From a virus (lineage: Duplodnaviria; Heunggongvirae; Uroviricota; Caudoviricetes): DNA of 23,278 bases. The translations under genes and the position numbers were made by a program. Location of the stretch: IMG/VR virus record IMGVR_UViG_2562617087_000022; one strand, written 5' to 3'. Positions 3,403-20,541 of this stretch are shown piece by piece. How positions within the stretch are numbered: the first letter of the stretch is position 1; each line of letters opens with the position of its first letter. The notes beneath the pieces were generated by a model that had not been told where the DNA came from, did not search any database, and was given only the letters and a program-made list of their open reading frames with translations.

Positions 3403-3456
3403 CCTGTTTACCTCTTTCTCAGGGAGTTTAGTCTCCAGGATTCCCGGGGCGGTTCA

Positions 3457-4428
3457 CTGTCTGAGCGCGAGGAGATACGAGCTGGTTTGTCAGCCAAAAT
3501 GAGCATTCGTGCGATAGCTACTGCGCTGAATCGCAGTCCTTCGACGATCTCACGTGAAGTTCAGCGTAATCGGGGCAGACGCTATTACAAAGCTGTTGAT
3601 GCTAATAACCGAGCCAACAGAATGGCGAAAAGGCCAAAACCGTGCTTACTGGATCAAAATTTACCATTGCGAAAGCTTGTTCTGGAAAAGCTGGAGATGA
3701 AATGGTCTCCAGAGCAAATATCAGGATGGTTAAGGCGAACAAAACCACGTCAAAAAACGCTGCGAATATCACCTGAGACAATTTATAAAACGCTGTACTT
3801 TCGTAGCCGTGAAGCGCTACACCACCTGAATATACAGCATCTGCGACGGTCGCATAGCCTTCGCCATGGCAGGCGTCATACCCGCAAAGGCGAAAGAGGT
3901 ACGATTAACATAGTGAACGGAACACCAATTCACGAACGTTCCCGAAATATCGATAACAGACGCTCTCTAGGGCATTGGGAGGGCGATTTAGTCTCAGGTA
4001 CAAAAAACTCTCATATAGCCACACTTGTAGACCGAAAATCACGTTATACGATCATCCTCAGACTCAGGGGCAAAGATTCTGTCTCAGTAAATCAGGCTCT
4101 TACCGACAAATTCCTGAGTTTACCGTCAGAACTCAGAAAATCACTGACATGGGACAGAGGAATGGAACTGGCCAGACATCTAGAATTTACTGTCAGCACC
4201 GGCGTTAAAGTTTACTTCTGCGATCCTCAGAGTCCTTGGCAGCGGGGAACAAATGAGAACACAAATGGGCTAATTCGGCAGTACTTTCCTAAAAAGACAT
4301 GTCTTGCCCAATATACTCAACATGAACTAGATCTGGTTGCTGCTCAGCTAAACAACAGACCGAGAAAGACACTGAAGTTCAAAACACCGAAAGAGATAAT
4401 TGAAAGGGGTGTTGCATTGACAGATTGA
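3457..4428 (+). pseudogene. insI: IS30 transposase, C-terminal portion (disrupted by IS629)
   Basis: From LSEREEIRAGLSAKMSIRAIATALNRSPSTISREV... to ...KEIIERGVALTD stop; colinear with InsI after the IS629 insertion point. Confidence 0.88.
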
Positions 4429-4433
4429 ATCTA

Positions 4434-4703
4434 CAAGTGCCTTTTTTCTGTCAGCGGTTCTCCTTTCCAGCCAATGAGAACCGTCAGGCGCGCGCCCCGT
4501 GGCGGTAGCTGCAACTGACCATCTGCATCATCCAGCGTGATGGTGAGCTGGTCCGCCTCAAATCCCCGGTTGTCGGTCAGTGACAGGCTCATCAGGCGCT
4601 CTGCCACGCCTGACAGCGTTTTACCCTCCGCGAGAATATCAAAATCCGGCACTTTCACGTGGTCTGTGCCCTGACTGAGCAATTGCATGGTGGTGTCGGT
4701 CAT
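4434..4703 (-). pseudogene. Phage tail protein D-like (Phage_GPD family), N-terminal fragment
   Basis: RBS AGGGAGG then ATG at 4703; ...LSLTDNRGFEADQLTITLDDADGQLQLPPRGARLTVLIGWKG resembles the N-terminal motif of P2 gpD-type proteins; only about 90 codons remain; the stop codon is supplied by the IS30 terminus. Confidence 0.5.
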
Positions 4704-4860: not shown

Positions 4861-6045
4861 ATGAGTGAAACTCGTTTTCATGGTGCCCGTGTTACGGAAA
4901 GTACCGACCTGGTAACAGCGATTAATGATGTTGATTCCAGTGTTATCGGTATCGTGGCAACGGCAGATGATGCGGACGCGGAGCTGTTCCCGCTGAACAA
5001 GCCCACACTGCTGACCCGCGTCAATGACGTGCTGGGAAAATGCGGGACTACGGGGACGCTTTATCGTGCGCTTAAGGCTATCGCAGACCAGGTGAGCACA
5101 AAAGTGATCGTCGTTCGCGTGGCTGAACACAAAGAAGAAGGCGGTAAGACGCAGGATCAACTGGTTATCGGTGGTTCTGAATCTGACGGCAGCTATACGG
5201 GGATGTATGCGCTGCTTGTTGCAGAGCAGGATGAAAGCATCGGATACCGTCCGCGTATTCTGGCCGCGCCGGAGCTGGACACGGAGGCGGTAACAAAATC
5301 CCTGTGCGTGATTGCGGGTAAACTGCGCGCGTTTGTGTATGCCACATGTCATGGTTGTAACACGATGGCTGAGGCGATTACCTACCGCCAGAAATTCAAC
5401 GAACGTGAGGTGATGCTCTTATGGCCTGACTTCATCGCCTACAACCTGAAAAGTGGCAAAAACGAAACGTTCCCCGCGCCTGCTTATGCGTGCGGCCTTC
5501 GTGCGTACATTGACCATGAGCAGGGCTGGCACAAATCGCTGTCCAACGTTCCGGTTAAAAATGTGCTTGGGATGTCGAGGCATGTGTTCTGGTCGTTGCA
5601 GGCCGAAGACAGTGATGCCAACAGCCTCAACAACAAAGAAATCACGACCATTATTCGTCGCAACGGGTTCCGCTTCTGGGGCAACCGCACACCGGAAACG
5701 AACGCCTACATCTTTGAGGTGTATACCCGAACCGCACAGGTGCTGGCTGATTCAATTGCGGAAGCGCAGTTTGAAACCATCGACAGTCCACTGACACCTG
5801 CGAACGTGAAGGATGTTATCAGTGCCATCAGGGCAAAACTGGATTCACTGGTTACTGCCGGGAAACTGATTGGCGCGGAGTGCTGGTATGACATCGAGGA
5901 TAACAGCACCACGAATTTACGTCAGGGGCGTGTGCGTATTCGCTACAAATATACGCCCGTTCCTCCGCTGGAAGACATGGAGCTTTACCAGTCGTTTACT
6001 GATGAATTCTTTGGTCCCGCATTTGCGGTGCTGGGAGGTGCCTGA
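4861..6045 (+). CDS. Contractile tail sheath protein (P2 FI-like)
   Basis: 394-aa ORF with RBS AAGGGG; recognisable similarity to the P2 FI sheath (e.g. ...LWPDF..., ...GFRFWGNRT..., ...YTPVPPLE...). Confidence 0.9.
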   Translation: MSETRFHGARVTESTDLVTAINDVDSSVIGIVATADDADAELFPLNKPTLLTRVNDVLGKCGTTGTLYRALKAIADQVSTKVIVVRVAEHKEEGGKTQDQLVIGGSESDGSYTGMYALLVAEQDESIGYRPRILAAPELDTEAVTKSLCVIAGKLRAFVYATCHGCNTMAEAITYRQKFNEREVMLLWPDFIAYNLKSGKNETFPAPAYACGLRAYIDHEQGWHKSLSNVPVKNVLGMSRHVFWSLQAEDSDANSLNNKEITTIIRRNGFRFWGNRTPETNAYIFEVYTRTAQVLADSIAEAQFETIDSPLTPANVKDVISAIRAKLDSLVTAGKLIGAECWYDIEDNSTTNLRQGRVRIRYKYTPVPPLEDMELYQSFTDEFFGPAFAVLGGA

Positions 6046-6557
6046 TGGCTGTACCAAAACATCTTCGCTTTTTTACGCTGTTTGTGGATGGTGAAAACGA
6101 AGTGGGTAAGGTGACGTCCGTCACCCTGCCTAAACTGACGCGCAAAACCGACAGCTACCGGGGTGGTGGCATGATGGGTGCGGTAAGTATTGACCTCGGC
6201 CTGGACGACTCCGCGCTTGATGCGAGCTTTGTCATGGGGGGCGCAGTTCGTGAGCTGTTCCTGAAGTATGGCGGCACGATTGACGGCACGCTACTGCGTT
6301 TTGCGGGGGAATACTACACCGATGATGAAAGCGACCTGTATGAAGTCGAAATGCGCGGACGTGTGACGGAAATTGATATGGGGGAAGCCAAACAGGGCGA
6401 AGCCACATCACACACTTACGCCATTAAAAACACCTACTACAAGCTGAGTGTTAACGATCGCCCGTTGTGGGAGATTGACCTGCTGAACTTCATTTACCGG
6501 AAGGACGGCAAGGACATTGTGCCCGATCGCATCCGTTCCGCGCTTGGGCTTGGCTGA
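6045..6557 (+). CDS. Tail tube protein (P2 FII-like)
   Basis: 170-aa ORF, start overlaps FI stop (TGATG); ...LPKLTRK...YRGGGM...LRFAG... pattern as in P2 FII. Confidence 0.88.
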   Translation: MAVPKHLRFFTLFVDGENEVGKVTSVTLPKLTRKTDSYRGGGMMGAVSIDLGLDDSALDASFVMGGAVRELFLKYGGTIDGTLLRFAGEYYTDDESDLYEVEMRGRVTEIDMGEAKQGEATSHTYAIKNTYYKLSVNDRPLWEIDLLNFIYRKDGKDIVPDRIRSALGLG

Positions 6558-6611
6558 TAAGTAATATGCAGGCGGCGCAGTGCGTCGCCTCTGACTGAAA
6601 GGAGTTTCCTG

Positions 6612-6977
6612 ATGAAAGAGACGAAAAACATCGATACCGAAAACACGGTAGTTACTGACACTGTGAAAGAAACCAGTGAGCGTGGTGTAAAACTTACCCA
6701 ACCAATTGAGCGAGGCGGCGAAAAAATCACGTATGTGGAGATCACCGGGGCTATTGAGCAGGCTGGATCTCTGCGAGATTTGTCGCTGTCTGATGTGCTG
6801 AATCTGAAAGCGGAATCCATGTTTACGCTGCTGTCACGCGTGACATCACCGCGACTGGATGAAGTGACGATCAAAAAAATGGCATCCCGTGACTTTATTC
6901 AGTTATGTGTGGTTGCCGTAAATTTTTTGAGCGGTGCGGACTCTGGCGGGAAGAACGAACAGGCGACGGAAGCCTGA
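6612..6977 (+). CDS. Tail assembly chaperone (P2 gpE-like)
   Basis: 121-aa ORF with RBS AAGGAG; position between tube and tape measure; contains a TTTTTTG slippery site near the 3' end. Confidence 0.75.
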   Translation: MKETKNIDTENTVVTDTVKETSERGVKLTQPIERGGEKITYVEITGAIEQAGSLRDLSLSDVLNLKAESMFTLLSRVTSPRLDEVTIKKMASRDFIQLCVVAVNFLSGADSGGKNEQATEA

Positions 6978-7141
6978 TCACGGTTGTGTGCTTTGAGCAC
7001 ATAGAAGACTTTGTGGCAGATATTGCCGTTATTTTTAACTGGTCGCCCGCCGAAATCTTCATGATGACGCCCGGCGAAGTGGTTAGCTGGCGTGAGCGGG
7101 CGGCACTTCGCAGCGGGAATGCAGACAATGAAGACTCTTGA
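6612..7141 (+). CDS. Tail assembly chaperone E+E' (predicted -1 frameshift extension product)
   Basis: The -1 frame ORF 6905..7141 overlaps the 3' end of E and ends inside the start of T, as in P2 E/E' (analogous to lambda G/GT). Confidence 0.55.
6923..6929 (+). promoter_or_regulatory. Putative -1 programmed ribosomal frameshift slippery heptamer T-TTT-TTG
   Basis: Heptamer in the E reading frame (codons AAT TTT TTG), upstream of the E stop and inside the overlapping -1 ORF. Confidence 0.5.
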
Positions 7142-9931
7142 TATCCGGGTCGCTTTCAGCGCCGTTGACAGGCTGACCCGACCTGCCGAAAACGCACGCC
7201 GCCTGATGGGGCAGTTTGGTGACTCCATCCAGCGAACGCAGGGGGCGATCAAAAATCTCGAGCGTCAGGCGCGATCATTTGAGCGCGCCCGCGACGCTGT
7301 CAGTAAAGCGGATGCTGGCATCGTGAAAGCACGACGCCAGCTTAACGCCCTTAATCAGTTACAACGCACGGGTACAGTGCTCAGCGAAAAACAACAAAAG
7401 CTGATGCAGCAGTTAAGCACCCGGCTTGAACGCCTGAATGAATCGCGCACACGGGAAATTCAGAAAATGAGGGAACTTGGCGGAGAGCTGAAACGCCACG
7501 GCATTTCCCTGACAGGCAGCGATAACACCATTCAGCAGGCCATCAGACGCACCGAACAATACAACAACCAGCTTGAACGCGAACGGCAGGCGCTTGCGCG
7601 TGTAACGCAGGCGCGTGAGCGGTATTCGCACGCGCAGGAAACCGCGGGAAAACTGAAAACAGGTGGTGCGCTGGCAATTGGTGCGGCAGCGGCGGGCGGC
7701 TATGCTGCCGGGCGTTTTTTGCAGCCTGCGATCGGGTTCGGCAAAGAGATGTCCCGCGTTCAGGCACTGACGCGAATCGACAAAAACAGCCCGCAGTTTA
7801 AGGCGCTGCGTGAGCAGGCGTTAAAACTTGCTGAAACACAGTTTACTGCGAGTGATGCCGCCAGTGGGCAGAGCTTTCTGGCAATGGCTGGTTTTACTCC
7901 GCAGGCCATTCAGGCCGCATTGCCCGGTGTTCTTAATATGGCGCTGGCAGGTGGCGTCGAACTCGGCGAGACGGCTGATATAGGCTCCAATATCCTCACA
8001 CAGTTCAACCTGACAGCCGATCAAATGGACCGGGTGGGCGATACGCTGACAGCAGCATTTACCCGGACCAATACTGATTTACGCGCGCTGGGCGAAACCA
8101 TGAAGTATACCGGTCCGGTTGCCGCAAAACTTGGTATCAGTCTTGAAGAAGCGGCGGCCATGGCCGGGATGCTTGCCAATAATGGTCTTCGCGGAAGCGA
8201 TGCTGGCACGGCCATGCGCGCAAGTCTGTCCCGCCTTGCATCACCGCCAAAAGCTGCGGCTGATGCACTGAAAGAGCTGGGGGTGTCAGTTGCTGACGCC
8301 AGAGGCAAAATGCGCCCGATGGAGGATGTGCTGCTTGATCTCTATAAGGCGACACAAAAATACGGACAGGTGGACCAGGTCTCCTTCTTCAAGGACATCG
8401 CCGGAGAAGAGGCGTTCGTTGGTTTGCAGACGCTTGTTGCGGCGGCTGGTTCAGGAGAGCTGCAAAAACTGACCAGAGAATTGCAGGGGGCAAGGGGAGA
8501 GGCCGATCGCGTCGCAAAAGTAATGGCTGATAATCTTGATGGGGACCTGAAAAATCTCGACAGCGCATGGGAAGGTCTTCGTATTCGCATCAGTGATCTG
8601 GTTGACGGTCCGCTGCGTTCTGTCACGCAGTGGCTCACGCGGGTGCTTGAAAAAATCACCTCGCTGGCGCAGGCCCATCCGGTACTGACGCGCCAGCTAC
8701 TGATAGCAGGCGGTGCGTTGCTGGCAATGACTGCAACGATTGGCTCGTTGTCGCTGGTTATTGGGGTGCTTTACGGGAAGCTGGCCACCCTGCGTCTTGG
8801 TTTTGACATTCTTACCCGGTCAATGAATGTCGTCAGGGTGTTACCTGCGCTATGGGGAATGGTGACGGGTTCCGTTTCTTTACTGGGAGGCGTTATCGGG
8901 GCGTTGTTCAGTCCGGTTGGTCTTATCGTGGCTGCGCTTGCCGGAGCTGCCGTTCTTATCTGGAAATACTGGGATCCTATCAGGGCTTTCTTTGCCGGGG
9001 TGTTCAGCGGGATTATGGAAAGGCTGACCCCGTTGCGCGACACCTTTGAACGGTTTGGCCCTGTTTTTGACGTAATCGGAAGCGGTTCAGCCAGGTGTTT
9101 AACTGGTTTAAATCGCTGCTGTCACCGATGGAGTCCAGCAAGGAAACGCTGGATAAATGTACCAGTGCTGGCGAGGTATTCGGTAACGTTCTTGGTGGTG
9201 CGTTACAGCTTGTTCTGACGCCTGCAAAAATGTTGCTGGATACGCTGGCGTGGATACTTGAAAAACTCGGTGTGCTTCCGGATGAAGCGGAAAGGGCGCG
9301 CAAGAAAATCGAAGACGCACAACGTGCGGCCATTCTTCAGGACAAGGTTGCTCTGTTTCAGGGAGACATTGCGAAAATCAATCCGCCGAAGTCTGCGGGA
9401 AATAGCAATGGCACCGGAGATGATAAACCCAAAGACAACAAACCTCTCACAGACAGCAATACCGGCACGCTACGCAGACTCAGCAAAATTGCTGATAACA
9501 CAGGTAAGCTGGTTGATGAGACAAAAAAACGCATTGGCCCCGGCGATATTGTCTTTAAGAACCTGCCCCGCGCACTTGCTGTTCGTGGGGAGTGGCAGGA
9601 GCGGAAGATTGCGCAGGTCAGTAAGCCTGCCCCCGCAATTAATATCACACCCGTGGTCCCGGCTCCGCTGCCTCCGGCGCTGGTCCCTGTTGTTGCGGCC
9701 AGCTCCCGCCCGGTGGTGGAGGCCATACGATCGCCAGTGGCATCAGTTCCTGCAACTTCCCGTAACCGGGAGCCTGTTGCCTCCGGATTTGGCGGTGAAA
9801 TTCATGTTCATCTGCATAACGTTGTTACGCAGAATCCCCGCGAACTGGCGAAACTGGTCGGCGAAATGGTCAGGGCAGAAATGGAACGGCGCGCCCGTGC
9901 CAGGCGTGGCAGTTTTTACGATAAAGATTGA
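7119..9931 (+). pseudogene. Tail tape measure protein (P2 gpT-like), apparently frameshifted near 9071-9095
   Basis: Coiled-coil and Gly/Ala-rich tape-measure-like sequence in frame 0 up to about 9080, then protein-like sequence continues in another frame (ORF 9095..9931); a 1-nt change in the short T run near 9086 would restore one roughly 937-aa ORF. Confidence 0.72.
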
Positions 9932-9937
9932 GGAGTC

Positions 9938-10432
9938 ATGGCCATGATGATGATCTACGGCATGTTTGTTTTTGAGCTGCGCACGTTGCCGCATCAGCAG
10001 TTACAGCAAAACAAAAGCTGGCGACATGTGAAAAATGAACGCGTTAACCGTTCAGCAAGCTGGCAGTATATCGGTGCAGGTGATGATCGCATCGTTCTTT
10101 CTGGTGTTCTTTATCCTGAGATTACTGGTGGCGAAGTGTCGCTGTCGTTGTTGACCACGCAGGCATATACAGGACGTCCTTGGCCTTTGATTGATGGCGT
10201 CGGGCAGATTTACGGCATGTATGTCCTGACCGGAACGAATACGACCCGCTCCGAGTTTGATCGCTACGGTAAGGCGAAAAAGATAGAATTTTCACTGACT
10301 CTTGAACGCTGTGATGAGGATTTGCGGGAGCGCCTGCAATCCTCATCGTTCAGCGATATGCTGTCCGGCTTCAAAGATAAGGTGACATCATCCCTTAATA
10401 GCGCGGCCAGCTCAGTTAAGGGGCTGCTCTGA
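9938..10432 (+). CDS. Tail protein (P2 gpU-like)
   Basis: 164-aa ORF with RBS GGAG; N-terminus MAMMMIYGMFVFELRT... and WPLIDG motif resemble P2 gpU; follows T. Confidence 0.8.
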   Translation: MAMMMIYGMFVFELRTLPHQQLQQNKSWRHVKNERVNRSASWQYIGAGDDRIVLSGVLYPEITGGEVSLSLLTTQAYTGRPWPLIDGVGQIYGMYVLTGTNTTRSEFDRYGKAKKIEFSLTLERCDEDLRERLQSSSFSDMLSGFKDKVTSSLNSAASSVKGLL

Positions 10433-10588: not shown

Positions 10589-11161
10589 GTGCTATCTTAC
10601 TTAATGGCAATTCACTTTGTTTTATTTGGAAACTCTACTAATTTAAAAAACTTCTGGAAACATGAAGTAATTCGGCGGAAACGTATGGATATCTGGAGGC
10701 TTTTAAGAGAGAAAAAGCAGCGTAACCGGAATTTCCTTTTCTGGTGGCGGTTGGCTAACGAAATGTATATTAATGGTAATAAATTACATAAGAAAGCAGC
10801 CAAAAAGTTAAACAGTAAAATAATTAACAAGTTTGGTTGTGAAATAGGATTGGGCGCAAATATTGGAAAAGGGTTGACAATTCCCCATCATGCTGGAATT
10901 GTTGTTCATTTTGCTGTTGATGCGGGTGAAAATCTGGTATTACGACAGAATACTACCATTGGACAGATAGATGGTGATATGCCTAGTTCAAGAGTAAAAA
11001 TTGGTAGTAACGTTGATATCGGAGCTAATTGTTGCATCATTGGATTATCACGTAAAATTGGGGATAATGTAAAAATAGGTGCAATGTCTTTTATAAATAA
11101 AGATATACCATCAAACTGCACATATATAACTAAAAAGAGTGGTGTTGTATTGTATAAATAG
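10589..11161 (+). CDS. Hexapeptide-repeat O-acetyltransferase (CysE/WcaB-like, left-handed beta-helix)
   Basis: GTG start at 10589 behind a strong AAGGAG RBS (alternative ATG at 10604); ...GCEIGLGANIGKGLTIPHHAGIVVHFAVDAGENLVL...IGSNVDIGANCCIIG... hexapeptide repeats; AT-rich; own promoter and terminator. Confidence 0.75.
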   Translation: MLSYLMAIHFVLFGNSTNLKNFWKHEVIRRKRMDIWRLLREKKQRNRNFLFWWRLANEMYINGNKLHKKAAKKLNSKIINKFGCEIGLGANIGKGLTIPHHAGIVVHFAVDAGENLVLRQNTTIGQIDGDMPSSRVKIGSNVDIGANCCIIGLSRKIGDNVKIGAMSFINKDIPSNCTYITKKSGVVLYK

Positions 11162-11170: not shown

Positions 11171-11209
11171 AGCCATCGATATTTCTGTCGATGGCTTTTT
11201 CTTTTTATT
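11171..11209. terminator. Bidirectional intrinsic terminator between convergent acetyltransferase and tfa genes
   Basis: Perfect 9-bp stem AGCCATCGA / TCGATGGCT with 8-nt loop, followed by TTTTCTTTTTATT on the + strand. Confidence 0.65.
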
Positions 11210-11737
11210 GTGGGGCGACTGGCCACTCAACATCCGCTGCTACTGTTGTATCAACACGATTCAACAATACCCGATATGTCTTCCATGCAGCCAGTAACGA
11301 TGCCTCTTCCTCCGTCGCAATATCCAAATCTACGGCATCCTGAAGTGGCGCAATATGCTCACTGGCTACCTGCATCAGGCTGTTTTTTGTTTCTTCTGCC
11401 TCCCGTACCCGAAACAGTTTTTCTGCTTCTGCATCTTTCGCCCAGGATGTGCCGTTCCACTTCTGACACTCTCCATCCGGCGACAACCAGGTAACATTTT
11501 CCGGTAACGGACCGAGTTCAGAAATAAATAACGCGTCGCCGGAAGCCACGTCATAAACCGTTTTACCCCGATGATCTTCAACGAGATGCCACGATGCCTC
11601 ATTACTGTTGAAAACAGCCACGAAGCCAGCCGGAATATCTGGCGGTGCAATATCGGTACTGTTTGCTGGCAGACCTGTATGAGGCGGAATGTATGCGTCA
11701 CCTTCACCAATAAATTCATTAGTTCCGGCCAGCAGAT
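11205..11737 (-). pseudogene. Tail fibre assembly protein (lambda Tfa / P2 G family), 5'-truncated by IS629
   Basis: Reading frame continues upstream of the listed ORF to the IS629 end: [51 protein letters not shown]...; about the first 16 codons are missing. Confidence 0.85.
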
Positions 11738-11791
11738 TGAACCGCCCCGGGAATCCTGGAGACTAAACTCCCTGAGAAAGAGGTAAACAGG

Positions 11792-12118
11792 ATGACTAAA
11801 AATACACGTTTTTCCCCCGAGGTCCGTCAACGGGCAGTCCGTATGGTTCTGGAAAGTCAGGGCGAATATGACTCACAATGGGCGGCAATTTGTTCCATTG
11901 CCCCAAAGATTGGCTGTACACCAGAGACTCTGCGTGTGTGGGTTCGTCAGCATGAGCGGGATACCGGGGGCGGTGATGGTGGACTCACCACCGCTGAACG
12001 TCAGCGTCTGAAAGAGCTGGAACGTGAAAATCGTGAACTGCGCCGCAGTAACGATATCCTTCGCCAGGCTTCCGCTTATTTTGCGAAGGCGGAGTTCGAC
12101 CGCCTCTGGAAAAAATAA
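11792..12118 (+). CDS. IS629 OrfA (second copy)
   Basis: 108-aa ORF, one substitution relative to the copy at 3076..3402. Confidence 0.85.
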
Positions 12119-12795
12119 TGCCGCTGCTGGATAAGCTGCGTGAGCAGTACGGGGTCGGACCGGTATGCAGTGAACTGCATATTGCCCCGTCAACGTATTA
12201 CCACTGTCAGCAACAGCGACATCATCCGGATAAACGCAGTGCCCGTGCGCAGCGCGATGACTGGCTGAAGAGAGAGATACAGCGCGTATACGATGAAAAT
12301 CATCAGGTGTACGGTGTGCGTAAAGTCTGGCGCCAGTTGTTACGCGAAGGTATCAGGGTGGCCAGATGTACAGTGGCGCGCCTCATGGCGGTTATGGGAC
12401 TTGCCGGTGTTCTCCGGGGTAAAAAGGTCCGTACTACCGTCAGCCGGAAAGCCGTTTCCGCAGGCGACCGCGTAAACCGTCAGTTCGTGGCAGAACGTCC
12501 TGACCAGCTGTGGGTGGCTGATTTTACTTACGTCAGCACATGGCAGGGCTTCGTCTATGTGGCGTTCATCATTGATGTGTTTTCCGGATGTATCGTGGGG
12601 TGGCGAGTCTCATCGTCTATGGAAACGACATTCGTGCTGGATGCACTGGAGCAGGCGTTGTGGGCCCGTCGGCCGTCCGGCACAGTCCATCACAGTGATA
12701 AAGGTTCTCAGTATGTATCACTGGCCTATACGGAGCGACTAAAAGAAGCAAAACTGCTGGCATCAACAGGGAGTACAGGTGACTCGTATGACAAT
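12118..12795 (+). pseudogene. IS629 OrfB, C-terminally truncated
   Basis: Matches the first OrfB copy through ...STGSTGDSYDN, then non-homologous codons and a stop; the DDE domain is incomplete. Confidence 0.85.
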
Positions 12796-12826
12796 GTATT
12801 TTATTAGTTCACATACAATTATCAGA

Positions 12827-13141
12827 TTATTCTGGGAATAAGGTCTGAATATTCTTTTTTATTTTATAAAAATTGCATTCAACTCCGCTAGGCTGATTAG
12901 CCTGGTATGTTTCCTTGATGCTAACGGTATTGAAGGGGAGGTTGTCCTCTGGCCATTCGGCCATCCAGTAGGCAAATGCTGGGTTGCGCTTTATGAGTGC
13001 TAGCCCAGCCAGAAAGGCCGCGCGTTGCGCGCGGCTGCGTTCGGAGGCTGGCAGGCTATCGAGGTAATTGCACGCCTCCTGTTCACTCTTGACGGCGGCG
13101 GGCTTCAGATAGAAACTTATCCGTCTGGTTGGTGTCGTCAT
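12827..13141 (-). CDS. parR: ParR/StbB-like ribbon-helix-helix centromere-binding protein
   Basis: 104-aa ORF 4 nt downstream of parM; N-terminal ...DSLPASERSRAQRAAFLAGLAL... resembles R1 ParR; the C-terminal third is AT-rich and divergent. Confidence 0.65.
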   Translation of the reverse strand: MTTPTRRISFYLKPAAVKSEQEACNYLDSLPASERSRAQRAAFLAGLALIKRNPAFAYWMAEWPEDNLPFNTVSIKETYQANQPSGVECNFYKIKKNIQTLFPE

Positions 13142-13145
13142 TGGT

Positions 13146-14105
13146 TTACTCCTTGTTCATTGCGTACAACCCATTAACCAGAGCAAACTGTGGCACCCCG
13201 TCCGCGATGAAAGTCGCATTAACTCCGCAGGCTTCGCGGATAGCGGTTGCCACAATCTCCGCCCCGCCACCGACAACCATCACCCGCCCGTAACCCGAAA
13301 AAACCGCCAGCGCGCGGATCACGCGTTGTTTCAGTGTTTCTTCCTTTTCACGAATAACCGCCATCAGGCTGGCGTAATGCGCGTCATTGTGGATGTGCTG
13401 GCGCAGCCAGGCTTCATCATGGCGATGTTCGATAATGGTATTGGCGATGTGGTGACTGGTGCGCATACCGTTAGTGGCCATCACCGACAGTACGGCATCG
13501 GCCATCAGAGAAACGCCTACGTGTGGATCGCAAAACACCTGGCTGATACCTGCCAGTTGCCCCTGAACCTTTGCCACATCCAGCGTGGTTCCGCCCAAAT
13601 CCACAATCAGCAGGGATTCAAACGGACTCATGTCAGCCAGTGCCTTAAAGCCAGCAGGAATGGATTCAGGCATAACCCGTACGTTACGGATAGTGAATGC
13701 TTCGCCGTTCTGGTACTCCACCGGGCGCATGACGTTCGCTTTTTTGCGGTTGATGTTGGCCATGTCCGGCTGTGCGTTTGTATCGAAATACTCGCTCAGT
13801 GGCAGGGTGACAACCACATCCACTTCCTGTGGTGTGATGCCTGATTTGACCAGCGCGTGATGAATGGCAATTACATTCACATCGCTGTACTGGTATTGCG
13901 TGTCGGTCGTCTGGACAAAGCGATCGCTGACCGGATCAAAACCATAGCGCACGCCATCAAGCATGTAGTTCGCGGGCTGCGTGCCACCGAATGGCGCAGA
14001 CCATTCCGACTTGAAGCTGTTCGGGCTGATGGCGTTGCGGCGTTCGCCGTTCTCAGTCCATGCCAGCTTGATGTTGGTGGAGCCGTCGTCGATACAAATT
14101 TTCAT
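13146..14105 (-). CDS. parM: ParM/StbA actin-like plasmid segregation ATPase
   Basis: 319-aa ORF; clear colinear similarity to R1 ParM (MK.CIDDGSTNIKL..., ...YSDVNVIAIHHAL..., ...VMPESIPAG..., ...DLGGTTLD..., ...GGGAEI...). Confidence 0.9.
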   Translation of the reverse strand: MKICIDDGSTNIKLAWTENGERRNAISPNSFKSEWSAPFGGTQPANYMLDGVRYGFDPVSDRFVQTTDTQYQYSDVNVIAIHHALVKSGITPQEVDVVVTLPLSEYFDTNAQPDMANINRKKANVMRPVEYQNGEAFTIRNVRVMPESIPAGFKALADMSPFESLLIVDLGGTTLDVAKVQGQLAGISQVFCDPHVGVSLMADAVLSVMATNGMRTSHHIANTIIEHRHDEAWLRQHIHNDAHYASLMAVIREKEETLKQRVIRALAVFSGYGRVMVVGGGAEIVATAIREACGVNATFIADGVPQFALVNGLYAMNKE

Positions 14106-14133
14106 GTCGCTTTTCCTTATGTTGATTAATTAA

Positions 14134-14252
14134 TCGGTTACAGGATTTTTAAATCCCGCTTTTGCCTGTTTTGTGCGCGCTTCATATATCGCGGCGCGTT
14201 TTTTGCTCATTTACGGGATTTGTGAGTCCCGTTTCTGTCTGTTTTTTGTTTC
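14134..14252. repeat. Two imperfect direct repeats of about 36 bp (iteron-like), straddling the 3' end of gene A upstream of parM
   Basis: ACAGGATTTTTAAATCCCGCTTTTGCCTGTTTTGTG (14134-) and ACGGGATTTGTGAGTCCCGTTTCTGTCTGTTTTTTG (14213-); each has an internal short inverted repeat. Confidence 0.35.
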
Positions 14253-17004
14253 CACTGGTCAGGCCACCCCGCAGCAGGTCTGCTTTGCGGCTGGCGCGTT
14301 CAGTGGTTTCACTGATTCTCTGTGCGTGCTCTGCGTCGCGGATGGCGCGCAGCATGTCAGAAAGCACGGTAACGGGTGTTTTCATGGTGTTCTGGTCCTG
14401 CTGAAGTGTGGATGCCAGGCGTGCGGCGGCTTCAGGGTCTGATGCCCCCAGCTGTGCCAGATAGCTGGCGACCGGGTTATGGCGGATCTCCGTGCTGCTT
14501 ACGCCATGATTACGGCTCAGGCGCTGCCAGAGCTGCGTGATTCGGCTGTCCGGGCGGGTATCCGGTTTGCGTACAATTTCAAATCCCTGCGGTGCAATGA
14601 TGCTGCCGTCAACGTACAGACTGCCGCCCCGTAACAGGTGCTGCATCTGTTGTTCACCGATATGCAGGCCGAGAGATTCAGCAGACTCCCGCCATTCTTT
14701 AGCGAGTAATTCGTGGTTATCAGGCAAAGGCCGCTGCTGTTTGCGGCTCTGTGTCCAGCTCTGCATTTCATCACTGCTGTTTTTTGCCTGTTTGTCACGA
14801 AGCGAACGCATCAGCGCCCGGCGTTCGTGCCGTTTCAGTGAGCGCATCCATTCGTTCACGTCAACGCCGTCAGGAAGCTGCGGCCACGGTGCTGGCCGTT
14901 CTTCCGGCTGTTCTGTCCCGTTGTTGTCCGTTTCCTGTACACGGGGACAGTTATTGCCACGAGTCCAAGGGGCGGCAGGGCCGCCCTGAAGGTCAAAACC
15001 ATTTTCGCGGGCGCTGTCTTCTACTCCCGGTTTACGTCTTACCAGCTTCCAGTTATCCGGGTGCGTGCACACACGGGAGGATTCCCCGATGAGTGGTGAC
15101 CAGATCCCGTAAATCTGTACGCTCTGTTCGCCGTAATCGTTCAGCTCATCTGCGAGGTCGTAGGCGGTGCGAATCAGGTAGTCCTTGCGTGGAACAAGTA
15201 CGCCTCCCTGTTTCTCAATGTAGGTGGTAAAACATCCGGCATCAGCGGCAGCAAGAACCGCATCCATTGCGTCATCCTTCAGCCGTTGCGGGCCTTCCGG
15301 GTTGCGTGCCATCTGGCTGGCAAGGCGACGCAGTTCACGCCACACCTGACGGGAGGGGATGCCAAAGAACTGGAACTGGCGGACCCGGTGAAGGCGCGCC
15401 CAGCCAATGGCGCGTTCCACGCTCTCGGTCATTGATTTTCCGGTTTCGTGGTCAACGCGTGGTTTGCCTGTTTTCGGGTCGATGCCATCCACGGCGCGGC
15501 TGTCCAGGTTTTTTCCGATGTAGGTGGCGATGTAGCTGGTTGGCGTGCCTTTTGAGCCGTCGACATACTCCGCCTTAAAGCGCGGAGTAATATCATCGCC
15601 CAGCTCGTGACGATCTTCCTGAATGGCAATATCGCGGGTGTGGGACACAATGGTGTCGATTTCTTCCGGATGAGCAAAGACCATCATATGCCAGTGCACG
15701 GTGCCGTCATGGTGAGGCTCCACCGTGCGGATGCCATACCAGCGCAGGCCGTCGCGGTTCAGTTTCTTGCGGACCGCCGCAAAAAACGTGTTAACCAGGT
15801 AATCGCTGGAGTCGCGCATGGTGGCCCCGTTCCATTTGGGATTCGGATGACCGTTCTCTGTTGTAGCGTGGTATTTTGACGGGCAGGTGACAGTCAGAAA
15901 CACCGCTTTGTCGCCACGGGCTTCGGCCAGAAGTTCCAGCCCCTTCATGGTGGCCATCATTTCTGCCTTACGGTGAACCGGGTTACTTACTCCCGCGTAA
16001 TACACTGTCTCGAGATCAATCGTGAACCCGTCTTCGTTTTCCAGCATGAAACTTTTCAGGAAATCGCGTGTTTTCTCGCGCTGTGCGCGAAACTCGCTTA
16101 ACGCGTCCTGGCTCAGATAGGGCGATGTTTTTCTGGAAACCAGACAGGCGGCGCGGAGTTGTTCTTCTCTCCACTCGCAACGTAACAGCCACAGTTTGCG
16201 TTTCCACCATTCCGCACAGGTCAGGCGAAGGATTGCGCCCGGCAGCAGCTCCGTGTCCGGTTCGTTCCTCCGGTCTTTGTCTGTTGTCAGTGCGTCATAA
16301 TGTGGAGGCATGGCGTGCAGGTGTAACGCCATGCGGGCCAGCATCTGATACGCCTTCAGCGTTACATCCATGGTCAGTTCGCCATCGGTCGCGCCAAAGC
16401 CATCGCAGAGTTTTTCGAAGGTGCTGCTGAACATCGCCGCCGTCATGGTGGCCAGCGTCTGTATCTGGTGTTTGTTGAGCTGCGGCAGGTAAAGCAAATC
16501 GTCCAGGCGTTCGCGTCCGGCAAGGGAGCGATAACCCTGTGTCAGCCAGCGGTGATCGGTGCGCTCCAGACGTTCGAATATTTTGCGCAGGTTTCCGCGC
16601 GCGTAGCGTTCAGCCTGCCAGCTCTTTTTGCCTTTCTGACGATCGGCTTCCTGTTTTTTGCGCAGGAAGGAGAGGTGGCGAATAAGCGGATCGCGCAGAT
16701 AGGACGGCAGCAGGCGCAGCGAGGCCATGGCTTCATCCACCGCACCGCGTGCCTGTTTTCTGGCGTCTCCTGCCAGTGTGATGGTTTTGTCCTGTTTTTC
16801 CTGTGCGTCCAGGCTTTTATTAATCAGGTTGCCCAGCGGCGTTGCGGAGAACGCCGCATCAGCCATTTCCTGGCGGCGCTCGTTCTCTACCCGGTAGGCA
16901 TCCAGCCAGGAGGAAAGCGCGGATTCAGGAGCGGGGATCCCCGTTCCTTCACGCCCCACTGCGTGGCGCGGTTGTTGCCAGTCCCTGATGTACTCTGCCG
17001 TCAT
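14182..17004 (-). CDS. Rolling-circle replication initiation endonuclease (P2 gpA-like)
   Basis: 940-aa ORF; HUH-type motif ...EPHHDGTVHWHMMVF... and tyrosine motif ...TSYIATYIGKNL... typical of P2/186 A proteins. Confidence 0.9.
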   Translation of the reverse strand: MTAEYIRDWQQPRHAVGREGTGIPAPESALSSWLDAYRVENERRQEMADAAFSATPLGNLINKSLDAQEKQDKTITLAGDARKQARGAVDEAMASLRLLPSYLRDPLIRHLSFLRKKQEADRQKGKKSWQAERYARGNLRKIFERLERTDHRWLTQGYRSLAGRERLDDLLYLPQLNKHQIQTLATMTAAMFSSTFEKLCDGFGATDGELTMDVTLKAYQMLARMALHLHAMPPHYDALTTDKDRRNEPDTELLPGAILRLTCAEWWKRKLWLLRCEWREEQLRAACLVSRKTSPYLSQDALSEFRAQREKTRDFLKSFMLENEDGFTIDLETVYYAGVSNPVHRKAEMMATMKGLELLAEARGDKAVFLTVTCPSKYHATTENGHPNPKWNGATMRDSSDYLVNTFFAAVRKKLNRDGLRWYGIRTVEPHHDGTVHWHMMVFAHPEEIDTIVSHTRDIAIQEDRHELGDDITPRFKAEYVDGSKGTPTSYIATYIGKNLDSRAVDGIDPKTGKPRVDHETGKSMTESVERAIGWARLHRVRQFQFFGIPSRQVWRELRRLASQMARNPEGPQRLKDDAMDAVLAAADAGCFTTYIEKQGGVLVPRKDYLIRTAYDLADELNDYGEQSVQIYGIWSPLIGESSRVCTHPDNWKLVRRKPGVEDSARENGFDLQGGPAAPWTRGNNCPRVQETDNNGTEQPEERPAPWPQLPDGVDVNEWMRSLKRHERRALMRSLRDKQAKNSSDEMQSWTQSRKQQRPLPDNHELLAKEWRESAESLGLHIGEQQMQHLLRGGSLYVDGSIIAPQGFEIVRKPDTRPDSRITQLWQRLSRNHGVSSTEIRHNPVASYLAQLGASDPEAAARLASTLQQDQNTMKTPVTVLSDMLRAIRDAEHAQRISETTERASRKADLLRGGLTSGNKKQTETGLTNPVNEQKTRRDI

Positions 17005-17010
17005 AGTGAT

Positions 17011-17376
17011 TTACTTCGTCATGCCATTCAGGGTGTCGCGGCAGGCTGTAGCCAGCCGCTGAATTTCCAGCACGGTGTCTTCTGTGTCGGCATGGCGATG
17101 TGTGATGCGGATGCTGTCGGCAATCACATCGACGATTGCAGAGGATGGGCGCTGGTAAATGCCAATAACGGACGGGGTGCCACCTTCAATGCGGTAAAGC
17201 CTGTAATTTCCCTCGTGGCTGTCAATCATGTAGCGACCATCAATAACAATCTTTCCGTCAGCGAGCTGCGGTACAGGCAGGGATTTCAGGTACATGTCAT
17301 AACGATCACGCACGCGAGCGGCAAGATCACGTTCTGTGTTGAGCAGGTATTCAAGAAAGTCGTTGGCGAGAATCAT
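17011..17376 (-). CDS. Hypothetical phage early protein
   Basis: 121-aa ORF with RBS AAGAGGA; ends 7 nt before gene A; protein-like composition. Confidence 0.55.
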   Translation of the reverse strand: MILANDFLEYLLNTERDLAARVRDRYDMYLKSLPVPQLADGKIVIDGRYMIDSHEGNYRLYRIEGGTPSVIGIYQRPSSAIVDVIADSIRITHRHADTEDTVLEIQRLATACRDTLNGMTK

Positions 17377-17448
17377 TGCGGCAATCCTCTTGTTACAGAT
17401 GTGCGAAGGCCTCCCGCCGCAAGGTGCAGGAAAGGCCCGGAACAGGAA

Positions 17449-17679
17449 TTAATGGAGTTTGTTTTGCTGCTGGATGAGCTGTTGAAACTCGTGCAGATCA
17501 TCCGCCAGATAGCTGAAAACAGAGGCGGAATAAATGTTTGATAGTGCGTGGCTGCGCTCATGCAGCATATTGATGTGCATGATTTGCGCGACGCGTGATG
17601 CGCGGGAAAGTCTGCGGTTGATTTCAGTCTGGATGTGACGACGCTCCGCGATAGCGCGGTGCTGTTTGCGGTCTGCCAT
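17449..17679 (-). CDS. Hypothetical small basic protein
   Basis: 76-aa ORF with GAGG RBS; first gene after the structured non-coding island. Confidence 0.5.
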   Translation of the reverse strand: MADRKQHRAIAERRHIQTEINRRLSRASRVAQIMHINMLHERSHALSNIYSASVFSYLADDLHEFQQLIQQQNKLH

Positions 17680-17848
17680 GGTGTGGCCTCTTTGCTCGGT
17701 GATAGAAATAACTCACCATCCAGAGTTGAGAATCTCGGGGTGGCGAGACGTACAGGGTTCTCAACACCGGAGAGCAAAGAATCCGGCCCGACCGAAGTCG
17801 GCCCCGTACGCCCCGCCATAATTCTGACGCGAAAAAGACGTGGCAATA

Positions 17849-17870
17849 CAGTACGCACAAAAAAACCGCT
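17849..17870 (-). terminator. Candidate intrinsic terminator (minus-strand transcript)
   Basis: Short GC stem AACCGC / GCGGTT with 4-nt loop, then 7 U on the minus strand; weak stem. Confidence 0.4.
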
Positions 17871-17941
17871 AGCGCGGTTATGCGCTTTGCTCTGTATCGG
17901 GTTGAGAATCCCGGCACCCGTTTTATGAGGTGCAGCGGAAA

Positions 17942-17970
17942 TGTAACCTGACCGATTGCGGCATGGCAAG
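17942..17970 (+). terminator. Candidate intrinsic terminator (plus-strand transcript)
   Basis: Stem CCGATTGC / GCAAGCGG (one mismatch) with 6-nt loop, followed by T7. Confidence 0.45.
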
Positions 17971-18001
17971 CGGTTTTTTTGTGTGTGCATGTTCTGGTTT
18001 C

Positions 18002-18301
18002 TTACTGGTTCAGAAAAAAATCAAAAACGTTATCGATGCGTTGCAGCAGCTCTTGCTGCATTGCTTCCGGCGTTTCCGGTTCGCCAGGTGCCCCCAGCGT
18101 TGCGCAGAAATCAGCGATTTCATGATGGAGCGTGAGGCGAATGGCAGGAGCCGTGGTTCTGGCGTGCTCCAGCTGATCCAGCAGTGCCAGCACAGCAGAC
18201 GGCGAGAGCATTGCGCGAAATGCCAGTAATTTTTGAGGCGTTGCCATTCGTTGCAGGGCAAATGCCAGTTCGCGTAGCTTCTGGTGGTTGATGGTGCTCA
18301 T
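18002..18301 (-). CDS. Hypothetical phage early protein
   Basis: 99-aa ORF; start overlaps the stop of the upstream gene (ATGA), indicating translational coupling. Confidence 0.5.
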   Translation of the reverse strand: MSTINHQKLRELAFALQRMATPQKLLAFRAMLSPSAVLALLDQLEHARTTAPAIRLTLHHEIADFCATLGAPGEPETPEAMQQELLQRIDNVFDFFLNQ

Positions 18302-18564
18302 GCTCTGGCTTCCTTCAGTAGCTGGTTAAACATGTGAGTAAGTGGATTGCTACACCCGAACGGCATCGGGTTTACGTGGTAAGAAGCCTGGCCTCCTGTT
18401 TTGCGAGCGCGACCACCTGTGCTGCGGTTTGTTCTGATGACTAAGCCGCCGCGCCAAAGTCGGCGTAACTCAGCATTAATGGCTGTGGTTGGGGTATTCA
18501 GTGCTGCGGCGATCTCTCCGCCGCTACACCCCGGATGAGTAGCGATGTAGTCCAGAATGGTCAT
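18298..18564 (-). CDS. Hypothetical protein, possible winged-helix DNA-binding fold
   Basis: 88-aa ORF, overlaps neighbours by 4 nt; ...GGEIAAALNTPTTAINAELRRLWRGGLV... looks HTH-like. Confidence 0.5.
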   Translation of the reverse strand: MTILDYIATHPGCSGGEIAAALNTPTTAINAELRRLWRGGLVIRTNRSTGGRARKTGGQASYHVNPMPFGCSNPLTHMFNQLLKEARA

Positions 18565-18764
18565 CTGCGTGGCTCCTGTACCTGTCGGATAAGATTTACT
18601 CGCGCCACGTTGGTGGCGCAGAAGTAAGTGCCGTCAGTGAGGTAGATGTGGTGTGCATCCTTTTCCGAACGATGTTTGTCGATAGTGGTAATCAGGCGTT
18701 CGTCGACCTCGTATTCGCGCCCTCTGGAGGTAAAGCGAACGACGGGAAAATGCTTAATTGCCAT
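18561..18764 (-). CDS. Hypothetical small protein
   Basis: 67-aa ORF in the coupled three-gene run. Confidence 0.45.
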   Translation of the reverse strand: MAIKHFPVVRFTSRGREYEVDERLITTIDKHRSEKDAHHIYLTDGTYFCATNVARVNLIRQVQEPRR

Positions 18765-18787
18765 TGCGCCCCCTTTGTCCAGTAACC

Positions 18788-19204
18788 CTATGCGTTAAAT
18801 ACGGCACGTTGCGCGTCATCAATGAATACAGCTTGAGAGCGTTCTATCAGGCGGAGATTTGTCAGAAGCTCTGACTCTTTTGTGTGGTAAGGCGTTATCA
18901 GGTATTTGCCGTGCAGTTCGGCAATAATGGTGTATTGCAGCATCATTGCTGAACCAAGAATATAAATGCAGCGTCCAATGCTGGACGGATTCATGGCTGC
19001 AACTGTTGACTGTGTTTTAAGAGTGTCGATTTCTTTGCTCTGTTCCTCAATAACTTTGGCTGCTTCAGGGGTGGCTATTGCGATGGTCAGTGCGTAAAGC
19101 GCTGCCATATGTTGATTATCTTTCTGGGCTGCCCTGGACAGCTTGTCTTGCTCTGCTGACACTATTTTTAATGTATTGATAATATTTTTTTCTTTTGCGT
19201 TCAT
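18788..19204 (-). CDS. Hypothetical protein
   Basis: 138-aa ORF with RBS ACGGAGA; AT-richer than its neighbours. Confidence 0.5.
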   Translation of the reverse strand: MNAKEKNIINTLKIVSAEQDKLSRAAQKDNQHMAALYALTIAIATPEAAKVIEEQSKEIDTLKTQSTVAAMNPSSIGRCIYILGSAMMLQYTIIAELHGKYLITPYHTKESELLTNLRLIERSQAVFIDDAQRAVFNA

Positions 19205-19317
19205 TTTATATCTCCGTTATTTACGTGTGCGAATACCTCCGCGAATGCGGATAGTTTTCAGGTTTTCGGGTTTAATCTGGTGTTCTGTTTAAGCTGTTAT
19301 TTGTCAGTGAAAAAGCG

Positions 19318-19410
19318 TTCAATCTTTTTTACTGAATGAATAATTCGCATAATCCCAATGGCGCAGGCCACCGAAATAATCAGAACAAGCCATGAGATAA
19401 ATATACTCAT
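19318..19410 (-). CDS. Putative 30-aa hydrophobic membrane peptide (not in the ORF track)
   Basis: MSIFISWLVLIISVACAIGIMRIIHSVKKI; ATG overlaps the stop of the upstream gene (ATGA); GGGGA 7 nt upstream. Confidence 0.3.
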
Positions 19411-19649
19411 GCGATATTCCCCAGCTTATATGGTTCAATGTGTTCCCCGCATTCTGCGGCACAGATCAGCTCGGAAAGTTCGTTAAGTGCATCCAGATCA
19501 TCAGCGTAAAAAGCAACGTCATACAAACTCCGGATTGCCCTGGTCAATGAGTCACGGGCTGCACGTTCAGCATGAGCGCCTGATGCACTTAAGCGAAAAT
19601 AAAATCGTTCAGGTGCTTTGTTAATGAGAGTTTTATATTCTTTGCCCAT
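19407..19649 (-). CDS. Hypothetical protein
   Basis: 80-aa ORF in the early operon. Confidence 0.5.
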   Translation of the reverse strand: MGKEYKTLINKAPERFYFRLSASGAHAERAARDSLTRAIRSLYDVAFYADDLDALNELSELICAAECGEHIEPYKLGNIA

Positions 19650-19660
19650 CGCAACGCCCT

Positions 19661-19939
19661 TTAATCTGCTTTCTGAATTTCAGCTTCTGAATCCATACAA
19701 ATAATTTCGATATAGGGTTCATCGCCATTAACCTGACGAGCCTTTTCAGCTTCGCTAATGATTTCTCGTACGGTCTGGTACGGAAGCTCCACAGTCAGGC
19801 GCGTACCGTTCAGATAAACGTAAGTAGCTGCGTTTTTTTCGGATGGAACAATTCCGTCAATGGCTGATGCGCGTAATAACAGTTCACCGCGAAAATCAAT
19901 AAAACGGATAAATACACCTTGTGCATGCTCTTTGGTCAT
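19661..19939 (-). CDS. Hypothetical protein
   Basis: Likely start at the internal ATG (MTKEHAQGVF...), 92 aa, giving a 10-bp gap to the upstream gene. Confidence 0.45.
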   Translation of the reverse strand: MTKEHAQGVFIRFIDFRGELLLRASAIDGIVPSEKNAATYVYLNGTRLTVELPYQTVREIISEAEKARQVNGDEPYIEIICMDSEAEIQKAD

Positions 19940-19949
19940 AAAGCACCTG

Positions 19950-20300
19950 TTATAAATCAGCCTGTTTAATAAAACTTTGCCCGCGAAGCAGACGATCAAC
20001 CGTGCGAAGTGCTTCGTATAATGTGAAATCCTGCCCGAAGTGATTGTCGCCGCAGTTCAATGCAAAAATGCGGTTCCCGGTAAACGGATTGCGTGGGCAT
20101 TTGTGGACCACGATTCCAGCTTTCTCAATCAGCCAGGCATGTTCGCCGATTTGTTTTACAGCGTGGCCATCCGGTGTTGCATGCGTCTCGTTCAGGTTAT
20201 AGCGACTGTTACTACGTGATGCACTGGTAGCGACGTGGTGTACATGGCGTTCTACGCCATTACGAAATTTGGAGTATGGATTATTAGCGTTTTTTTTCAT
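19950..20300 (-). CDS. Hypothetical protein
   Basis: 116-aa ORF in the early operon. Confidence 0.5.
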   Translation of the reverse strand: MKKNANNPYSKFRNGVERHVHHVATSASRSNSRYNLNETHATPDGHAVKQIGEHAWLIEKAGIVVHKCPRNPFTGNRIFALNCGDNHFGQDFTLYEALRTVDRLLRGQSFIKQADL

Positions 20301-20321
20301 GATGGTGCTCTGTTCATTGTT

Positions 20322-20525: not shown

Positions 20526-20541
20526 CCCACTAGCCTCCTGA

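Follow-up and report, generated by a model that had tools for sequence, protein, structure and literature searches.

The window analysed here, a stretch of 23,278 nucleotides from IMG/VR virus record IMGVR_UViG_2562617087_000022 (Caudoviricetes), represents prophage Sp13 (CP-933T) of Escherichia coli O157:H7 and carries what is very probably a deletion scar, fixed in this lineage. In the scar, the tail fibre assembly gene tfa is truncated at its 5′ end by the left terminus of a copy of the insertion sequence (IS) IS629. This copy is itself truncated and is joined directly to phage DNA beside the partition gene parR, and the head, lysis and baseplate modules that lie between tfa and parR in intact relatives are missing. 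The 3.7 kb around the two junctions are 100% identical to many E. coli O157:H7 chromosomes. Over the whole window the sole difference from strain EC4115 is one 1-bp gap, and the identity to strain Sakai is 99.97–100%, except for one extra IS629 in the window. The Sakai record names the segment 'prophage Sp13, P2-like phage' and places its 21,120 bp between yecA and the tRNA-Leu gene leuZ. Sp13 is a P88-like member of the P2 family inserted at the 3′ end of leuZ, beside yecA.

Occurrence of the junctions

The distribution of the scar was surveyed in 5,426 complete E. coli genomes with a 301-bp probe over the left junction, a 221-bp probe over the right junction and a 3.7-kb probe over both. Each of the three probes was matched with full coverage in exactly 264 genomes, among them the finished genomes of Sakai, EC4115 and TW14359. 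None of the 5,426 genomes contained one junction alone or a full IS629 in tfa, and no non-O157 genome in the set had either junction. In a published survey, the IS629 sites of Sp13 were found only in clonal complex A6 (Rump 2011, PMC3271280). The junction as such is already known, as it has been in the Sakai annotation since that genome was finished and is listed as a truncated IS629 site.

Left junction

The truncated tfa matches the intact tfa genes of strains 95JB1 and Z1323HEC0393 without gaps up to position 11737/11738, and the left inverted repeat of IS629, TGAACCGCCCCGGGAATCC, starts at 11738, directly against it. The intact Tfa of 95JB1 has 192 residues, of which the window keeps (N)LLAGTNEF through the stop codon. 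Fifteen codons are fully gone, and the break falls within the 16th (Asn), unless the first T of the IS completes that codon. The PF02413 domain is whole (profile positions 1–131), with the loss confined to the N-terminal 15–16 residues and the start codon. In RefSeq (PGAP), the remnant is called an intact 176-residue 'tail fiber assembly protein' (WP_001310336.1, 11205–11735, minus strand), the start of which is a non-ATG codon right against the IS629 end. The Sakai record has a shorter 138-residue 'tfaQ', and neither entry is flagged as a pseudogene. In practical terms, a 5′-truncated tfa stands in RefSeq as an intact protein.

Truncated IS629 and right junction

The IS629 copy in the scar aligns with the full copy located elsewhere in the window (2147–3456, minus strand) as an inverted match of 1057 nucleotides with 8 mismatches. 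The first mismatch occurs only at position 96, so the left terminus is intact. The left inverted repeat (TGAACCGCCCCGG...) is identical to that of the full copy, and the right repeat is gone together with the rest of the last 253 bp. The full copy is flanked by the target-site duplication CTG, whereas in the truncated copy the right end and its flank are deleted. At the same place, the Sakai record lists 1057 bp as the repeat_region 'IS1203 Family: IS3 partial'. The site corresponds to IS.14 of Table S2 in Rump 2011, described there as 'Sp 13, truncated' with the flank ATCTGCTGGC and given as 1057-bp intervals in Sakai, EDL933, EC4115 and TW14359 (PMC3271280). The window thus shares with Sp13/CP-933T the 1057-bp partial IS, the ATCTGCTGGC flank and the tfa and parR neighbours of IS.14, and Sakai Sp13 differs in that it has no nested full IS629 (IS.33).

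At the right joint, CGTATGACAA is followed by TGTATTTTATTAG, whereas an uncut IS629 would run on as CGCGATGG. The 32 bp between the joint and the parR stop codon at 12827 are 78% A+T. Matches to phage vB_EcoM-569R5 and to ST131 prophages begin exactly at 12795, and the 32 bp are identical in them. In the alignment with 569R5, identity runs from TGTATTTT on, and no bases are common with IS629 across the joint. The 32-bp flank is therefore native, and IS629 is joined directly to phage DNA. A preliminary description of the window had the loss of about the first 16 tfa codons, the abutting intact IS629 left terminus and the cut after about 1058 bp (1057 of 1310 by our alignment) essentially right. 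The AT-rich join of about 30 bp to parR that it proposed is also real, but this is not filler; it is the native 3′ flank of parR.

The break lies within orfB. The translation ends in ...GDSYDN-VFY-stop, whereas the full copy goes on with AMAESINGLYK, and Pfam rve_3 and rve_2 match the full copy but not the truncated one. The catalytic Glu of the DDE triad, which we assign to the AMAES motif from the DD(35)E spacing of the IS3 family, presumably lies 4 codons past the break. The −1 frameshift region between orfA and orfB is annotated in the truncated copy (AL1L pseudoknot), with the DDE transposase incomplete. Without a right end and with a transposase that lacks the catalytic Glu, the truncated copy is predicted to be immobile.

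The missing block

The prophage of the O111 strain 95JB1 served as the intact reference. It has the same U–acetyltransferase–tfa module (93–96% identity to the window) and is collinear with the window on both sides of the scar. Between the two breakpoints, 95JB1 contains 15,088 bp (L005:21440-36527), and the corresponding gap in phage P88_4B11 is about 14.5 kb. The 95JB1 block contains the tail fibre gene H, the baseplate genes I/J/W/V, the tail completion genes S/R, the lysis cassette, X, L, M, N, O, the terminase gene P, the portal gene Q, accessory ORFs and the interval between Q and parR. In the window, only 32 bp are left between the truncated IS629 and parR, and the capsid and packaging genes Q, P, O, N, M and L are gone, as are the lysis cassette and the baseplate/fibre operon (X, Y, K, lysB/C, R, S, V, W, J, I, H). 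In 95JB1, P88_4B11 and phage 520873, the stretch from tfa to parR holds the lysis and baseplate/fibre genes. The 15-kb block of 95JB1 had no blastn or tblastx match anywhere in the window. The cos site was probably lost with the block, judging from its expected position in the Q–parR interval. A search with a P2/186-type cos pattern gave no match in the window and none in the intact relative either, and was thus uninformative.

These comparisons agree with the preliminary description in that the head, lysis and baseplate modules have been lost without trace in the window, and they place the size at the lower edge of its estimate of roughly 15–20 kb. Its suggestion of a comparison with an intact prophage was borne out both with 95JB1 and with 520873, which occupies the yecA site; in each the block is present between tfa and parR. 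It had deduced the gap content from the canonical gene order of P2. This holds for the span from tail fibre to portal, but the appropriate reference is a P88-like Xuanwuvirus.

The absence of the block from the rest of the O157 genome was assessed by sampling ranked matches. An 11.2-kb segment of the block, from I to Q, matches 1,193 records, and O157 genomes accounted for 0 of 60 evenly spaced rows of the ranking. In a like sampling with a kept Sp13 segment (1,446 records), 11 of 60 rows were of O157 type. As near-identical O157 genomes would rank contiguously, a group of 264 could not be missed by such sampling. In Sakai, Sp13 is the only P2-like prophage (Asadulghani 2009, PMC2669165), and its portal, head, DNA-packaging, lysis and host-specificity functions were scored as absent (PMC2669165). 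The evidence that the block is deleted and absent elsewhere in O157 is thus strong but indirect.

Comparison with P88-like phages

The closest phages are those of the P88-like genus Xuanwuvirus (Peduoviridae), not P2 itself. Members of this group (P88, P88_4B11, 520873, vB_EcoM-569R5 and the 95JB1 prophage) show 90–97% DNA identity to the retained parts of Sp13. In P88_4B11, 520873 and 95JB1 the order is int, C, cox, ..., A, parM, parR, one or more accessory ORFs and the genome ends/cos, followed by Q, P, O, N, M, L, X, holin, endolysin, lysB/C, R, S, V, W, J, I, H and tfa. Past tfa come an invertase cassette or an acetyltransferase gene and then U, T, E, FII and FI on the opposite strand. The FI–U block diverges from D, which precedes ogr and hok. 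Sp13 shares with these phages the early arrangement int-C-cox...A-parM-parR and the divergence of FI–U from D, and 520873 is a prophage at the same yecA/leuZ site. The differences are that the P88-like phages are intact, with 33–37.5 kb, whereas Sp13 is without the 14.5–15.1-kb block from H to Q/cos, most of D, and ogr. Between tfa and U, Sp13 and 95JB1 have the acetyltransferase gene, and P88_4B11 and 520873 have the invertase with an alternative fibre/chaperone cassette.

The genes int, C, cox, A, FI, FII, E, T, U and D are common to P2 and Sp13, as is a tail fibre chaperone gene after H. In P2 itself, FI-FII-E-T-U-D lie behind G and share its direction, and the position of parMR is taken by old/tin. 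Unlike in P2, FI–U is natively inverted in the genus to which Sp13 belongs and diverges from D, and the Tfa protein is of the lambda Tfa type.

Origin of the deletion

The two ends brought together in the scar, nucleotide 1057 of the IS and a point 32 bp past the parR stop codon, share no bases. A single non-homologous deletion would be the most economical mechanism; the order and number of events and the enzymes are inferred. In the most probable history, IS629 first inserted into codon 16 of tfa. A later loss would have removed the last 253 bp of the IS, the first 46 bp of tfa and some 15 kb of adjoining phage DNA. The phage DNA lost would have begun with H, taken in the genes for baseplate, tail completion, lysis, capsid, terminase and portal as well as cos, and ended 32 bp past the stop codon of parR. 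Finally, the ends would have been joined bluntly, with no shared bases. One example of such an event would be a break close to or at the IS right end that nucleases eroded unequally (253 bp inward and ∼15 kb outward) before the ends were joined. A single parental phage is supported by the order and orientation of the genes from attR to int, which match one P88-like genome.

Other routes were considered and rejected. Homologous recombination between direct copies of IS629 would have left one complete IS behind, and a classical transposase-mediated adjacent deletion would have an IS terminus as its endpoint. Microhomology-mediated joining in its simple form was rejected because there are no shared bases at the joint.

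The IS-excision enhancer IEE and IS629 co-occur in O157 (Calvo 2023, PMC9943667). IS629-adjacent deletions in O157 range from a few nucleotides to >40 kb, and a break–resection–joining model has been put forward for them (PMC9943667). Extension by IEE in vitro needs 4–6 nucleotides of microhomology (Calvo 2023, PMC9943667; Chandler-group preprint). The IEE-promoted IS629 deletions reported from EHEC (Kusumoto 2011, as cited in Calvo 2023; Calvo 2023) resemble the Sp13 scar in being large deletions beside IS629 in an IEE-bearing lineage. Sp13 differs in having its breakpoint within the IS, 253 bp from the end, and in that microhomology is missing. Neither an endpoint at an IS terminus nor microhomology, as expected of an adjacent deletion by IEE and transposase, is found at the scar. 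A right-end break followed by unequal erosion would produce exactly the anatomy of Sp13, though the model expects microhomology. The designation 'IS629-associated' in the preliminary description is thus correct in that a truncated IS629 bounds the deletion, but the association is positional only, as neither endpoint is an IS terminus.

Several points weigh against the preferred account. With both endpoints away from an IS terminus, classical transposase-mediated adjacent deletion would not account for the scar, and the end-joining model for IEE would call for a microhomology that the joint does not have. The truncated copy has 8 differences from the resident full copy over 1057 nucleotides, so the insertion, and possibly also the deletion, may predate the arrival of the phage in O157. 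The absence of the block from O157 rests on the sampling of ranked lists and a published statement rather than on an exhaustive genome scan. In addition, none of the 5,426 genomes represents an intermediate, either with a full IS629 in tfa and the morphogenesis genes present or with a full IS629 at parR, and the order and number of the steps are for this reason an inference.

A multi-step history, although rather unlikely in our estimation, deserves consideration. A second IS629, nested at nucleotide 1057 or located beside parR, would have supplied the active end, with sloppy strand transfer or adjacent deletion between the copies, and would then have been consumed or cleanly excised via IEE. 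IS629 is active and abundant in O157, and a younger full copy did enter Sp13 in a sub-lineage. IEE and the transposase together give precise excision and adjacent deletions of up to >40 kb, and a sloppy strand-transfer model has been proposed (PMC9943667). A joint made by the transposase needs no microhomology, which fits the blunt junction, and a route via a vanished second IS629 is equally compatible with the sequence. However, this history requires more events than one deletion, and the scar contains no trace of a second copy and no target duplication; nor was an intermediate present among the surveyed genomes.

It is less probable still that Sp13 has a composite origin, with a 95JB1-like tail side and a 569R5/ST131-like early side from different phages, or that it was acquired in an already deleted form. 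The best relatives of the two flanks do differ, with O111 prophages on the side of the tail module and the ST131/569R5 type for the parR allele and its 32-bp flank. However, P88-like phages are mosaic anyway, and the arrangement and orientation of the genes, like the attR repeat that recurs past int, are consistent with a single genome. Deletion before acquisition would be in line with the 0.76% difference between the truncated IS and the resident full copy and with the restriction of the Sp13 sites to clonal complex A6 (PMC3271280), but neither junction occurs in a non-O157 genome of the survey. Moreover, an earlier deletion would shift only the timing and not the nature of the scar.

We consider it highly improbable that the block was moved rather than lost, by an inversion or translocation with a breakpoint inside IS629 that carried the right end of the IS away. 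In O157, prophages and IS copies serve as the endpoints of large genomic inversions. The termini of such inversions have been listed (PMC7430833). Against relocation stand the contrast between the samplings of the block and of the kept segment, the placement of the Sp13 early region at one site only in O157 records, the report of Sp13 as the sole P2-like prophage of Sakai, lacking head and packaging genes (PMC2669165), and the lack of any remnant of the block in the window. A rearrangement, named in the preliminary description as the alternative to deletion, thus left no sign in the window or in the sampled records.

An assembly artefact, the other alternative named there, can practically be dismissed: IS629, with ∼20 copies per genome, is a classic source of reads mis-joined through repeats, but the junctions are identical in 264 independently assembled complete genomes, finished references among them, IS.14 is listed at identical coordinates for all four reference genomes and was scored in individual strains (PMC3271280), and repeat collapse would not yield a break inside the IS at nucleotide 1057.

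It is conceivable, though in our view very doubtful, that the blunt joint inside IS629 is the fossil of a break and erosion triggered by the transposase and IEE, which would be a class of IS scar that has not yet been described.

Setting of the prophage and its early module

The features of the window are listed in Table 1. The 124-bp att repeat has a second copy, with 98% identity, just past the integrase gene, and this fits the published excision of Sp13. The early module has the composition expected of a P88-like phage, with int, C, cox and A followed by parM–parR (annotation and Pfam), and 12795–20267 is 91–97% identical to P88-like phages. On the early-region side of the deletion, parR is the first kept gene, followed by parM and then the gene for gpA. 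Retention of the int, repressor, replication and partition genes, as described previously, is evident from annotation and Pfam.

The minus-strand ORF at 17373–17990 (205 residues) is annotated as 'antirepressor' in Sakai. Inside it, in another frame, lies a 76-residue 'derepression protein' ORF (17449–17679, minus strand), which, from its annotation only, we tentatively take to be a P4 epsilon-like derepression gene.

Table 1. Features of the 23,278-nucleotide window in order of position
Feature	Position	Strand	Basis or remark
pgsA	1-549	+	
glyW, cysT, leuZ	702-1003	+	
attR repeat, 124 bp	948-1071		takes in leuZ 3′ end; partner beyond int, outside window
Stretch without match in related phages, about 800 bp	~1072-1872		
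Tail gene D fragment	1873-1947	-	
IS30, holding nested IS629	1948-4435 (1948-2146 + 3460-4435)		
Full-length IS629, 1310 bp	2147-3456	-	nested in IS30; target duplication CTG
5′ part of D	4436-4703	-	
Kept tail block: FI (sheath), FII (tube), E/E', T (tape measure), U	4861-10432	+	RefSeq annotation
Hexapeptide-repeat 'serine O-acetyltransferase' gene	10589-11161	+	own terminator hairpin; between U and tfa
tfa', 5′-truncated tail fibre assembly gene, lambda Tfa / Caudo_TAP type	11205-11737	-	Pfam PF02413 E=5e-40
Truncated IS629 (IS1203 / IS3 family)	11738-12794	+	nucleotides 1-1057 of 1310
IS629 orfA, intact, 108 aa	11792-12118	+	ORF (open reading frame) list; Pfam HTH_Tnp_1
IS629 orfB'	12118-12807	+	225 native residues + VFY + stop from phage DNA
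Native phage sequence 3′ of parR, 32 bp	12795-12826		deletion right edge 12794/12795
parR-like partition gene (Plasmid_stab_B)	12827-13141	-	Pfam PF10784, E=8e-29, annotation
parM (StbA), actin-like segregation ATPase	13146-14105	-	Pfam StbA_N + ParM_N, annotation
Replication endonuclease gpA (A)	14182-17004	-	
Early module small genes	17011-20748	mostly -	
Repressor C	20824-21228	+	
Integrase	22277-23278	+	

Tail-side decay and the full IS629 copy

The FI–U block is present on the other side of tfa from the deletion and is collinear with P88-like phages. Within it, T (7128–9931, plus strand) is frameshifted into ORFs at 7092–9218 and 9095–9931 and is a pseudogene in EC4115 and Sakai. An inversion of FI–U mediated by IS629 was also considered, an idea that arose from the inverted pair of IS629 copies and the orientation of FI–U opposite to the P2 order. 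It was rejected, as intact P88-like phages and 95JB1 have the same orientation without an IS, and the full copy is a recent insertion in a sub-lineage. The acetyltransferase gene next to the block has a Pfam Hexapep score of 24.4, under the curated cut-off of 27. It is shared with O111 prophages and could be a lysogenic-conversion moron.

The D gene is split by IS30 and ends ∼340 bp into the gene at 1872/1873; roughly 770 bp of it are missing, and ogr is absent. The IS30 is a simple insertion into D, as the D fragments are contiguous in relatives, with a 2-bp overlap. Minus the nested IS629 it measures about 1175 bp and is annotated as 'IS30 partial' in Sakai. Full-length IS30 has 1221 bp. The copy in the window thus probably has a small internal deletion. 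In the D fragment, at 4441–4447, the window has one extra T in a homopolymer relative to EC4115 (T6 versus T5). This may be a real slip or a sequencing error and would have no effect in the already truncated D.

The flanks of the full IS629 are those of IS.33, which was reported in Sp13 with the flanks GCTCAGACAG/CAGTGTCAGG only in EC4115 and TW14359 (Rump 2011, PMC3271280). This assigns the window to an EC4115/TW14359-like sub-lineage. The full copy is present in 47 of the 264 Sp13-bearing genomes and absent from Sakai. As the truncated copy occurs in all 264, it is the older and lineage-wide one, and the full copy is a later insertion. The two sites can thus serve as lineage markers, the truncated copy for 264 genomes and the nested full copy for 47.

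Position 1872/1873 is a second deletion boundary, at which D is joined to unrelated sequence. On the phage strand, the unrelated side begins with TGAACCG, the first 7 bases of the IS629 terminal repeat, a match that may be fortuitous or a final vestige of another IS end. Between attR and the D fragment (∼1072–1872), no blastn match was found in five P88-like relatives. A hypothetical ORF of 93 residues (1542–1823) lies within this stretch, and near 1200–1300 there is a weak likeness to the hok/mok regulatory region that phage 520873 carries at its right end. Beyond this hok/mok-like remnant, a global alignment of 520873 with the left end of the prophage was largely uninformative.

Behaviour of the remnant

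In Sakai, Sp13 excises, circularises and replicates (Asadulghani 2009, PMC2669165). It is one of three Sakai prophages for which DNA and early transcripts go up after mitomycin C, and its circular form is seen without induction and rises ∼30-fold with the drug (PMC2669165). Part of the Sp13 DNA was protected in particles resistant to DNase; transfer to K-12 was not observed (PMC2669165). A P4 epsilon-like derepression gene was suggested as a possible cause of the SOS response of Sp13, and ogr was reported to be absent (PMC2669165). The description of Sp13 as a 'non-inducible remnant', given in the preliminary account, is contradicted by these measurements. The retained int, cox, C, A, parMR, both att repeats and the derepression gene fit the measured excision and replication. 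On its own, Sp13 can neither make virions nor lyse its host: it has no means of assembling heads, packaging DNA or producing a baseplate or fibres.

It is conceivable, but we regard it as very doubtful, that the deletion turned Sp13 into an SOS-responsive, plasmid-like satellite that has parMR and tail genes, travels in the capsids of unrelated prophages and is kept by selection. If true, Sp13 would owe its persistence to selection and not to the O157:H7 clone being young. The scar is an instance of ordinary prophage decay in O157:H7. The loss of virion genes should nevertheless not be read as non-inducibility, since Sp13 excises and amplifies after DNA damage.

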